Assembly: GCA_016700035.1 (NCBI GenBank) | Contig: CP064998.1 | Location: 199,021-263,020 of the forward strand | From: a bacterium | Lineage (GTDB): Bacteria > Patescibacteriota > Saccharimonadia > CAILAD01 > GCA-016700035 | Direction: 5' to 3' | Length of the DNA stretch: 64,000 bases | Shown: one piece after another, positions 16,069 to 31,324 of the stretch | How the letters are laid out: the number at the start of each line of letters is the position of its first letter | Numbering within the stretch: position 1 is the first letter of the stretch | Notes under the pieces: generated by a model | Database searches by the model: none | What the model was told of the DNA's origin: nothing | The model's input: the letters and a program-made list of their open reading frames with translations, nothing else | Position numbers and translations under genes: made by a program

Positions 16069-16098
16069 TTGACAGTTGGGCTCATTATGCCGTAAACT
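16069..16098 (+). promoter_or_regulatory. Candidate 16S rRNA promoter (TTGACA-N18-TAAACT)
   Basis: Perfect -35 hexamer about 280 nt upstream of the 16S 5' end. The -10 is weak. Confidence 0.3.
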
Positions 16099-16198
16099 CT
16101 TTAGAGGTAGTTCGCTATAACGACTTTTAAAAAGCAAAACATGGTTCTTCCTAAAAAGAGGACCGTTGTTTTTTTCTAGCGTTTGGAGCTACTGGACT

Positions 16199-16222
16199 TT
16201 GACAAGTTACCTGTGTCAGTTT
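16199..16222 (+). other. 16S leader half of a precursor processing stem; pairs with trailer 18085-18106
   Basis: Leader gacaagttacctgtgtcagttt is nearly the reverse complement of trailer aaactggcacaggtaacttgtg (22 bp, one G-U). Confidence 0.6.
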
Positions 16223-16346
16223 AACTTTAAATTTTGTATTTAAACTTTTTTATGTTCGTATAACAGGATTAAAAGCTACGCATTTGGTTGTATCGTTCTA
16301 ATGTGTAGCTAAACTTTAACGATATAATATACTTTTGTATGTTGTG

Positions 16347-17866
16347 TATGAGAGTTTGATCCTGGCTCAGGATGAACGCTGGCGGCATGCCTAATACATG
16401 CAAGTCGTACGCAATCACTTTATTCGCTCGCAGCCGTGGAATTTCCACATTTGCGAGCGGAATACATGAGTGATTGAGTGGCGGACGGGTGAGTAACACG
16501 TTGGTACCTGCCCCAAAGTGGGGAATAACTGCCCGAAAGGGTAGCTAATACCCCATAGTCTTATGCTTGTCATAAGTAAAGCTTTTGCGCTTTGGGAGGG
16601 GCCTGCGTCTGATTAGCTAGTTGGTTGAGGTAATGGCTCACCAAGGCGACGATCAGTAGCTGGATCGAGAGGTTGACCAGCCACACTGGGACTGAGATAC
16701 GGCCCAGACTCCTACGGGAGGCAGCAGTAAGGAATCTTCCACAATGGGCGAAAGCCTGATGGAGCAATGCCGCGTGCAGGAAGACGCTTTTCGGAGTGTA
16801 AACTGCTTTTCTGAAGGAAGATTATGACGGTACTTCAGGAATAAGGATCGGCTAACTACGTGCCAGCAGCCGCGGTAATACGTAGGATCCAAGCGTTATC
16901 CGGAATTACTGGGCGTAAAGCGTGCGCAGACGGTTTGATAGGTCAGTTGCGAAATCCCGTGGCTCAACCATGTGGACTGTAATTGAAACCATCTGACTAG
17001 AGGTAGGTAGAGGCAAGTGGAATTTCTGGTGTAGGGGTGACATCCGTAGATATCAGAAGGAACACCAATGGCGAAGGCAGCTTGCTGGGCCTTACCTGAC
17101 GTTCAGGCACGAAAGCGTGGGGAGCAAACAGGATTAGATACCCTGGTAGTCCACGCCGTAAACGATGATCACTAGTGATATGGGGCTTCGACCCCCTGTG
17201 TCACAAAGCTAACGCGTTAAGTGATCCGCCTGGGGAGTACGAACGCAAGTTTAAAACTCAAAGGAATTGACGGGGACCCGCACAAGCGGTGGAGGATGTG
17301 GTTTAATCCGAAGCTACGCGCAGAACCTTACCGAGGCTTGACATCCCAGGAAGACCGTCGAAAGACAGTTGTGCCTTTTGGAACCTGGTGACAGATGCTG
17401 CATGGCCGTCGTCAGCTCGTGTCGTGAGATGTTGGGTTAAGTCCCGCAACGAGCGCAACCCTTGTCGTATGTTGTCTTTTCATACGAGACTGCCCGGGCC
17501 AACCGGGAGGAAGGTGGGGATGACGTCTGGTCGGCATGGCTCTTACGCCTCGGGCTACACACGTCCTACAATGGGTAGTACAATGGGCAGCCAAACCGCA
17601 AGGTGGAGCAAATCCCACCAAAACTACCCCCAGTTCGGATAGAGGGCTGAAACTCGCCCTCTTGAAGTCGGAATCGCTAGTAATGGCGCGTCAGCATAGC
17701 GCCGTGAATACGTTCCCGGGTCTTGTACACACCGCCCGTCAAATCACGAAAGTTGGGAGTGCCCGACGTATTGTCTTTTAGACAGTCCTAAGGTAAGCCC
17801 AGCGATTGGGGTTAAGTCGTAACAAGGTATCCGTACCGGAAGGTGCGGATGGATCACCTCCTTTCT
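16347..17866 (+). rRNA. rrs: 16S ribosomal RNA
   Basis: 5' AGAGTTTGATCCTGGCTCAG. 515F and 1492-region conserved blocks. 3' GGATCACCTCCTTTCT. About 1520 nt with no large insertion. Confidence 0.95.
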
Positions 17867-18084
17867 AGGGAGAAAGCTTACTGGCAACAGTACCAGTACT
17901 ATAAGTACTGGCGTTACGGTATGAAATGTGGTTATCGAGCTGCTTAGTGTCTTTAGATACTAGGAAGTGCTCACCAAAAATCTTCATATCGAATGGCTAT
18001 CCTAGGTCGACTTTTCACGAATCTTTATTTTTGTGAAAATAGCCTGTTATACACATAGCTAAGAACTTACTTTGTTTAGAGTTC

Positions 18085-30700: not shown

Positions 30701-30985
30701 CAGTTCGGTCCCTATCTGGTGTGGGCGTAAGGAAATTTGAGGAGAGTTGCTCCTAGTACGAGAGGACCGGAGTGAACGAACCTCTGGTGTACCGGTTGTC
30801 GCGCCAGCGGCATGGCCGGGTAGCTATGTTCGGACGGGATAAGCGCTGAAAGCATCTAAGCGCGAAGCCTCCTCCAAGATTAGATTTCCCTATAGACTCC
30901 ATGAAGACTACGTGGTTGATAGGCACTAGGTGTACGCACAGTAATGTGTTTAGCCGAGGTGTACTAATAGTCGATTGACTTTTTC
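27799..30985 (+). rRNA. rrl: 23S ribosomal RNA with two AT-rich expansion segments
   Basis: 5' GGTTACGAAG...GATGAAGGACG...CCGAATGGGGAAACC. Conserved sarcin-ricin and peptidyl-transferase regions. 3' GGTGTACTAATAG. About 3.19 kb against ~2.9 kb typical. Confidence 0.9.
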
Positions 30986-31174
30986 TTCGTGGTTTACTTG
31001 ATCATTTTTTGTGATTAGGTAAACCGATTTTTGACAAGATGAGTGCTTGGCACGCTTTTTACAAGCTAAAAATCTCTAAGAAATCTTTAAAGAAAGCAAA
31101 GTGCCTTTAATCGTAAGTATGAATGACTTCCATTGTGAGCGTCGGTCTTTCGGGCTTTAGAGCTTGAGAGACCG

Positions 31175-31283
31175 GTGCTTATGGCGGAGGGGCCACACCT
31201 GTTCCCATACCGAACACAGCAGTTAAGCCCTCCTGCGGCGATGATACTGGTAACCCCGGGAAAGTAGCGCAGTGCCGGATTGG
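31175..31283 (+). rRNA. rrf: 5S ribosomal RNA
   Basis: GCTTATGGCGGAGGGGCCACACCTGTTCCCATACCGAACACAG...GGGAAAGTAGCGCAGTGCC. Confidence 0.85.
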
Positions 31284-31290
31284 AATTATT

Positions 31291-31324
31291 AAAAGCCGCC
31301 TATTTTTATAAATGGGTGGCTTTT
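31291..31324 (+). terminator. Putative rrn terminator hairpin followed by a T-run
   Basis: GCCGCC...GGTGGC stem with one G-U, then TTTT. Confidence 0.35.

Follow-up and report, generated by a model that had tools for sequence, protein, structure and literature searches.

We analyzed a 64-kb stretch of bacterial DNA (contig CP064998.1; hereafter the window), about 10% of its genome, together with 20-kb pieces of related genomes, and focused on the ribosomal RNA (rRNA) genes and the DNA between them. Rfam searches located single 16S, 23S and 5S rRNA genes on the plus strand, each matching its full model with a high score (Table 1). The 5S gene is still linked to 23S, and a gap of 9,929 nt (17864 to 27794) with open reading frames (ORFs) on both strands separates 16S from 23S, exceeding the 1500 bp beyond which Brewer et al. 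count rRNA genes as unlinked. An earlier note on this DNA had described the same split, with ~10 kb of protein-coding DNA between a 16S end at 17866 and a 23S start at 27799; the genes and the split were confirmed, and the two endpoints were moved by 2-5 nt. GyrB and GyrA are encoded upstream. Among species-representative genomes, the homologs of the UppS protein encoded in the gap came from metagenome-assembled genomes (MAGs) of Candidatus Saccharibacteria (83-51% identity), on which basis we assigned the window to this group (Patescibacteria, within the Candidate Phyla Radiation, CPR). The classical TM7 probe targets misfit the 16S gene, with no match for the TM7-567 target at ≤3 mismatches and 2 mismatches for the TM7-905 target, so the phylum assignment rests on the protein relatives. 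Exact-sequence look-ups of the window UppS, 823-aa and 600-aa proteins matched no record.

Table 1. Positions of the rRNA and tRNA genes, predicted signals and ORFs at the locus (window coordinates).
Feature	Position	Strand	Evidence
16S promoter, TTGACA-N18-TAAACT	16069-16098	+	best promoter match of the region
Structured 16S leader domain	16106-16192	+	predicted fold; flagged terminator-like by scan
16S processing stem, 5´ arm	16198-16222	+	25 nt, 92% complementary to 18085-18109
16S rRNA gene	16344-17864	+	RF00177, 1504 bits, full model length
16S processing stem, 3´ arm	18085-18109	+	complementarity, cofolding, covariation
Putative bidirectional intrinsic terminator	18114-18143	both	perfect 12-bp stem 18114-18125/18132-18143; A-run on one side, T-run on the other
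o87, 87-aa predicted membrane protein, convergent with 16S	18158-18421	-	20 homologs, about 85-88 aa
503-aa choice-of-anchor Q domain protein, variable insert	18716-20227	-	NF041518, E = 1.9e-24
72-aa ORF, doubtful	20450-20668		
tRNA-Ile(GAT)	20752-20828	-	ARAGORN, Rfam; 97-100% identical in relatives
Structured tRNA spacer, variable insert	20829-21243	-	415 nt; fold z = -3.3
tRNA-Ala(TGC)	21244-21320	-	ARAGORN, Rfam
Putative tRNA-Ala/tRNA-Ile promoter, TTGTCT-N17-TACAAT	21523-21551	-	motif match
Four genes: 156 aa, 195 aa, 446-aa ferric-reductase-like flavoprotein, 232-aa dienelactone hydrolase	21620-24833	+	PF01794, PF00175, PF01738
UppS, undecaprenyl-diphosphate synthase	24838-25539	-	TIGR00055, 230 bits; PF01255
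600-aa fn3 surface-type protein, variable insert	25661-27463	+	PF00041
23S-5S promoter, TTGACC-N15-TGnTACGCT (extended -10 TGaTACGCT in the window)	27514-27543	+	conservation in relatives
Structured 23S leader domain	27555-27670	+	predicted fold, alignment of relatives
Extended 23S processing stem, 5´ strand	27673-27793	+	complementarity, cofolding, covariation of proximal 13-bp helix
23S rRNA gene	27794-30987	+	RF02541, 2683 bits
23S processing stem, 3´ strand, between 23S and 5S	31027-31150	+	complementarity, cofolding, covariation
5S rRNA gene	31171-31280	+	RF00001, 81.6 bits
Predicted 23S-5S terminator	31292-31325	+	hairpin AAAAGCCGCC...GGGTGGCTTTT, then T-run

Relatives were gathered by a metagenome scan with a flavoprotein alignment, which gave four loci, and by searches for homologs of the 87-aa protein and of UppS followed by contig look-up; the loci carry L numbers here. 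The unlinked layout recurs in L011 (JGI; 16S 92% identical to that of the window, 16S-23S gap 10.3 kb), in L017 (ENA; 94%, 6.0 kb), in L020 (NCBI GCA_020854115.1; 93%, 8.1 kb, with an rve transposase inside) and in the 701-kb JGI contig Ga0558716_00063, represented by L013 and L018 (99.9%, 19.8 kb), which with the 9.9 kb of the window gives the spacing in five independent assemblies. All four relatives have the same core order: DUF212, 16S, the 87-aa gene (opposite strand), tRNA-Ile and tRNA-Ala (opposite strand), flavoprotein, hydrolase, UppS (opposite strand), 23S and 5S. For L004, L009 and L014, the 9-10 kb past UppS or the flavoprotein contained no 23S gene.

Saccharibacteria genomes of about 0.7-1 Mb typically have a single rRNA copy, which counts against the idea that a canonical linked rrn operon lies elsewhere in this genome and that the copies described here are extra or decaying. 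The window shows just 64 kb of the genome, and genomes in which linked and unlinked copies are mixed have been described (Brewer et al.), but the full-length, high-scoring model matches of all three genes, the 99-100% identity of 16S and 23S to those of the 701-kb contig, and the purifying and compensatory selection on the flanking stems and promoters documented below make such a second copy improbable.

A candidate promoter was found for each rRNA unit, as was a candidate terminator after 16S. The -35 element TTGACA and a TAnAnT -10 element of the 16S promoter recur at the same position in L004, L009, L011, L014 and L017, with diverged flanks. A second TTGACA, inside the 5´ arm of the 16S processing stem, was considered as the true 16S promoter and rejected, since L017 has TTAACA there with compensating changes in the trailer. 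Upstream of 23S, an alignment of the window with L001 and L002 showed that conservation starts sharply at the -35 element TTGACC and covers the extended -10 element, with variation in the -35/-10 spacer; L011, L017 and L020 also have TTGACC and TGnTAnnnT, at a distance of 55-58 nt before the leader hairpin. The terminator, which the earlier note had placed at 18113-18142 and called strong and bidirectional, corresponds to a perfect 12-bp stem one position further on, and would end transcription of 16S as well as of the minus-strand genes that converge on it. In 8/8 loci (window, L004, L009, L011, L013, L014, L017 and L020), the 16S stem was followed, directly beyond its 3´ arm, by a hairpin and a T-run, with unrelated sequences in the diverged loci, so that the signal is kept as a structure and not as a sequence. 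The predicted terminator after 5S was read from the sequence, as the terminator scan missed this hairpin, which has a 13-nt loop; L011 has a counterpart hairpin and T-run of different sequence after its 5S gene.

These elements bear on the possibility of one long operon, in which transcription from the 16S promoter would continue through the 10-kb spacer into 23S-5S. The 16S and 23S-5S genes do share orientation and neighbourhood in several relatives, and the literature on oral Saccharibacteria speaks of 'the ribosomal operon' (PMC7651992). Such a transcript would, however, have to pass the perfect 12-bp terminator stem beyond the 16S stem, whose structure is conserved in all relatives, and then 3.4 kb of minus-strand genes converging on 16S as well as UppS, again on the opposite strand, to reach a 23S gene with a conserved promoter directly upstream of its leader. 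The spacing itself, at 6-19.8 kb, differs two-fold between loci with 99.9% identical 16S genes, and a transposase is tolerated within it. Together these observations leave a long operon with very little probability.

Both rRNA genes are flanked by complementary sequences. For 16S, an inverted repeat of 22 bp between leader and trailer (16201-16222/18085-18106) had been noted earlier; the repeat is real and slightly longer, with 25 nt on each side (16198-16222/18085-18109, 92% complementary). For 23S, for which complementarity had been noted between ~27690-27760 and ~31050-31140, we found three pairing blocks (27687-27704/31106-31123, 27727-27744/31066-31083 and 27749-27775/31041-31067). Cofolding of leader and trailer gave a gain of -43.2 kcal/mol for the 16S flanks, compared to -5.7 ± 2.8 for shuffled trailers (z about -13), and of -54.7 kcal/mol for the 23S flanks, compared to -8.9 ± 3.2 (z about -14). 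Chance does not account for this complementarity. The gains in L004, L009, L011, L017 and L020 likewise correspond to z values of -6 to -18 relative to shuffles, and the 23S leader/trailer duplex recurs in L011, L017 and L020.

The stems also covary. Across five distinct sequences of the 16S stem, with arms hand-aligned from known anchors, 92.8% of cells were paired and double changes occurred in 8/25 pairs, a result matched by 0/500 shuffles, and across four distinct sequences of the 13-bp helix beside the 23S ends, 94% were paired with double changes in 5/13 pairs, matched by 1/500 shuffles; these figures back the helices and are not probabilities. When the pairing partners were slid by 1-3 columns, pairing fell to 21-40% for the 16S stem and to 17-46% over both stems. 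Nearly all wobble pairs in both stems combine a leader U with a trailer G, pointing to selection on the plus-strand RNA rather than on the DNA. This asymmetry is relevant to the suggestion that the inverted repeats, instead of forming RNA processing stems, act on DNA, for example as recombination sites or as the termini of a mobile rRNA cassette. The different placement of the 23S-5S block relative to the surface-protein genes among relatives and the TTGACA hexamer within the 5´ arm of the 16S stem could be taken to favor this, but the changes are compensatory across both arms, the U-G wobbles would be A-C mismatches on the other strand, the hexamer itself is altered in L017 together with its partner in the trailer, and the arms lie at distances typical of ordinary processing stems, about 146 and 220 nt from the mature ends. 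A role at the DNA level is very improbable. An assembly or binning artefact, whether a chimeric join or a collapsed repeat, can be dismissed as next to impossible, given that, although metagenome assemblies often break or misjoin at rRNA genes and contigs L001, L002 and L019 end inside 23S, the same gene order from DUF212 to 5S was found in independent JGI, ENA and NCBI assemblies on contigs of 75 to 701 kb, in line with the earlier statement that the layout is not an assembly gap, and published complete oral Saccharibacteria genomes show a similar layout.

Each promoter is followed by a predicted structured leader domain that ends in an invariant U-tract and precedes the 5´ arm of the respective processing stem. 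The 16S domain has a closing stem (16106-16113/16185-16192), an inner hairpin (16141-16166) and an invariant run of seven U residues (16169-16175); the U-run and the base of the hairpin are kept in relatives. The 23S domain consists of a long hairpin whose lower stem is invariant (CCAC(A/G)CGUGAG paired with UUCACG(C/U)GUGG, in which the variable position covaries from A-U to G-C), a small 3´ hairpin and a run of six U residues (27663-27668), and both hairpins covary. A GCGTGGT/ACCACGC hairpin with the U-run in the 23S leader was considered as a classical terminator and rejected, because the pairing is not kept in L002. Permissive searches with both leaders gave no Rfam family, and viral contigs scanned with the 16S leader motif gave no match. 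The boxA consensus GYTCTTTAANA was absent from the plus strand of 16100-16343 and 27545-27793 at ≤2 mismatches, though this consensus is gamma-proteobacterial (PMC5725501) and a lineage-specific U-rich boxA is possible.

Conserved promoters, a terminator after 16S, covarying stems and opposite-strand genes support, at the level of sequence, the proposal of the earlier note that each rRNA is a self-contained precursor. The ancestral rrn operon is very probably represented here by three separate transcription units with self-closing rRNA precursors. The first unit would comprise promoter, structured leader, 16S and intrinsic terminator; the second, on the opposite strand, tRNA-Ala followed by tRNA-Ile from a promoter of their own; and the third, promoter, structured leader, 23S, 5S and terminator. 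In the 16S precursor, leader and trailer would pair in a 25-bp duplex, and in the 23S precursor in an interrupted duplex of ~100 nt per strand, with each duplex formed on its own transcript and bringing the mature rRNA ends together. Such duplexes would be the expected substrates of RNase III, as in ordinary operons and in Helicobacter pylori; we infer both the RNase III cleavage and the transcript boundaries. The DNA between the units would be free of the constraint of co-transcription, such that genes could be gained and lost freely.

Several points weigh against separate units. The promoters and terminators are consensus matches backed by conservation alone, the covariation draws on four or five distinct sequences, and the window covers only about 10% of the genome. 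In addition, a leader hairpin followed by a U-tract would, at face value, stop transcription before the rRNA, and read-through of the U-tracts by the polymerase must be assumed; the covariation of the downstream 5´ arms with the trailers supports this assumption indirectly. The leader domains could be an antitermination loading site, an attenuator or a folding element. That they constitute a Saccharibacteria-specific control device, acting as an attenuator or as a loading site for Nus-type factors, is a speculative proposal that we consider unlikely. If it were true, the passage of both precursors through the same kind of gate could balance 16S and 23S without co-transcription. The conserved leader domains are the sole part of the locus that might lead somewhere new, while the split layout itself opens no new question.

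The tRNA pair lies on the minus strand inside the gap, as the earlier note had indicated, but it is not the canonical spacer pair simply inverted, as on its own strand the order is Ala then Ile, not Ile-Ala. A motif similar to the putative promoter of the pair, TTGTCA-N17-TACAAT, is found upstream of tRNA-Ala in L004. ARAGORN detected only these two tRNAs in the whole window, and tRNA-Val(TAC) was not found. The 415-nt spacer between the two genes is homologous solely to the 459-nt spacer of L014-L016, and the hairpins show compensatory changes; the spacer is 11-160 nt in other relatives and 33 nt in the near-identical L013. It contains two similar hairpins with the core CGCGCAG...GAGCAUA along with T-arm-like pieces. 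These pieces and a ACAGAACC...GGCUUA motif raised the possibility of an RNase P RNA or tmRNA, which we rejected, as the motif is not kept in the L014 spacer, ARAGORN and Rfam were blank, and the spacer is absent from most relatives. Permissive Rfam searches of the spacer and of the tRNA region gave no family besides the tRNAs. The intact tRNAs are flanked by tRNA-Ile fragments (a 3´ half at 20672-20712 and a 5´ part at 20864-20895, each ~88% identical to the gene) and by a tRNA-Ala-like 5´ piece (about 21410-21440), which suggests repeated duplication or recombination at this spot.

The earlier note had counted nine protein genes on both strands of the gap. Nine ORFs of at least 72 aa are indeed present, five with family matches and three more with homologs in relatives; the remaining 72-aa ORF is doubtful because it contains a hairpin and a T-run. 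The o87 gene adjoins the 16S 3´ end in L004, L009, L011, L013, L014, L017 and L020, and by position, the only feature compared, is probably the counterpart of the '79aa protein' of oral Saccharibacteria. The 503-aa gene is absent at the same place in the sister genome L013, and the 600-aa fn3 gene is absent between UppS and 23S in L011, L017 and L020. Most relatives also have the flavoprotein and hydrolase genes; L014 is without the hydrolase gene. In a more distant relative, UppS is found in its usual frr-uppS-rseP context, indicating that its position beside 23S is specific to the clade.

Judging from these comparisons, the DNA that separates the rRNA units changes rapidly. Contig Ga0558716_00063 has ~9.8 kb of extra DNA separating the hydrolase from UppS, with genes for TatA, TatC and a histidine kinase among others, and is without both the 503-aa gene and the 415-nt tRNA spacer of the window. 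Within the 16S-23S gap of L020, the rve-family transposase (15711-16679) separates the 87-aa gene from the tRNAs. A segment of 190 nt in the window (21890-22081) is included in both of two neighbouring BLAST alignments to L013 (8234-8615), which suggests a short duplication in the window genome or in L013.

Additional observations were made on the 23S gene and its neighbours. The 23S gene has 3194 nt, compared to the 2925 positions of the model, with the excess in three expansions that contain no ORF and were placed from alignments: ~+28 nt (about 28075-28105), +121 nt (28146-28257) and +145 nt (29700-29850), the last closed by a 21-nt inverted repeat (29688-29708/29840-29860). These expansions fit the rRNA insertions reported for CPR bacteria. 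The surface-type proteins encoded on either side of 23S-5S (25661-27463, 31385-33856 and 33936-35414) share a C-terminal domain of ~94 aa, and the number and order of the paralogs vary (L001, L002, L004, L014 and L018), placing 23S-5S differently among them. Elsewhere in the window, the 941-aa phenylalanyl-tRNA synthetase beta chain (237-3062, plus strand) has an NlpC/P60 peptidase domain match at residues 447-521, between the B3/4 and B5 domains.

The unlinked layout is confirmed for this locus but is already documented for the phylum, with Patescibacteria among the clades that have exclusively unlinked rRNA genes (Brewer et al., bioRxiv 10.1101/705046; ISME J 2020). The window resembles the unlinked set of Brewer et al. 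in its 16S-23S distance above 1500 bp and in keeping 23S and 5S together; theirs is a catalogue of distances, whereas precursor structure and gap content are considered here. The present analysis adds sequence evidence against an operon in this clade, the covariation-supported stem model and the extent of the plasticity of the gap. The practical value is modest. With gaps of 6-20 kb and a two-fold difference at 99.9% 16S identity, methods based on long-read 16S-ITS-23S amplicons (ITS, internal transcribed spacer) will miss or mis-size the lineage; the largest ITS in a nanopore study was that of Saccharibacteria, and in strain TM7x pyrD and a hypothetical gene lie between 16S and 23S (2025 preprint). 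The separate units predicted here also correct the habit of calling the Saccharibacteria rRNA region an operon. Little work has been done on ribosome biogenesis in this CPR lineage, for which a model of pre-rRNA processing backed by covariation is now available.

The most similar loci are those of oral Saccharibacteria, in which tRNA-Ala(TGC), tRNA-Ile(GAT) and proteins in various orientations are encoded between 16S and 23S, with the tRNAs in the order Ala, Ile, Val (Murugkar, Collins and Dewhirst 2020, J Oral Microbiol, PMC7651992) and, judging from the published primer design, co-oriented with 16S. Shared features are the presence of both tRNAs in the gap and their order Ala-Ile. The 87-aa protein encoded directly after 16S in the window may correspond to a small phylum-specific protein of 79 aa in the oral genomes. 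In the window, by contrast, the tRNA pair is inverted and converges on 16S, tRNA-Val is lacking, and the gap contains eight or nine ORFs (among them the flavoprotein, hydrolase, UppS and surface proteins) instead of one to five including dihydroorotate dehydrogenase. The oral study treated the region as one operon and reported no promoters, terminators or processing stems. Compared to an E. coli-type rrn operon, the locus has the same leader/trailer duplexes around 16S and 23S and the same tRNA-Ile and tRNA-Ala genes, but the E. coli-type operon is a single transcript with co-oriented spacer tRNAs, Ile before Ala, and the gamma-proteobacterial boxA consensus was not found in the window leaders at ≤2 mismatches.

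Other bacteria are already known to have unlinked rRNA genes, each with a processing stem of its own, and the window presents nothing new in kind. In H. pylori, 16S and 23S-5S have separate precursors, and RNase III cuts each of them within a typical stem formed by the flanks (Iost, Chabas and Darfeuille 2019, NAR, PMC6582327), a direct parallel to the independent precursors and leader/trailer stems proposed here around 16S and 23S. RNase III cleavage was demonstrated experimentally in that organism, whereas for the window it is deduced from the sequence, and H. pylori has an extra stem-loop before 5S and an antisense RNA over the 23S leader. In contrast to H. pylori, no more than 10 kb separates the rRNA genes of the window, and their orientation is the same.

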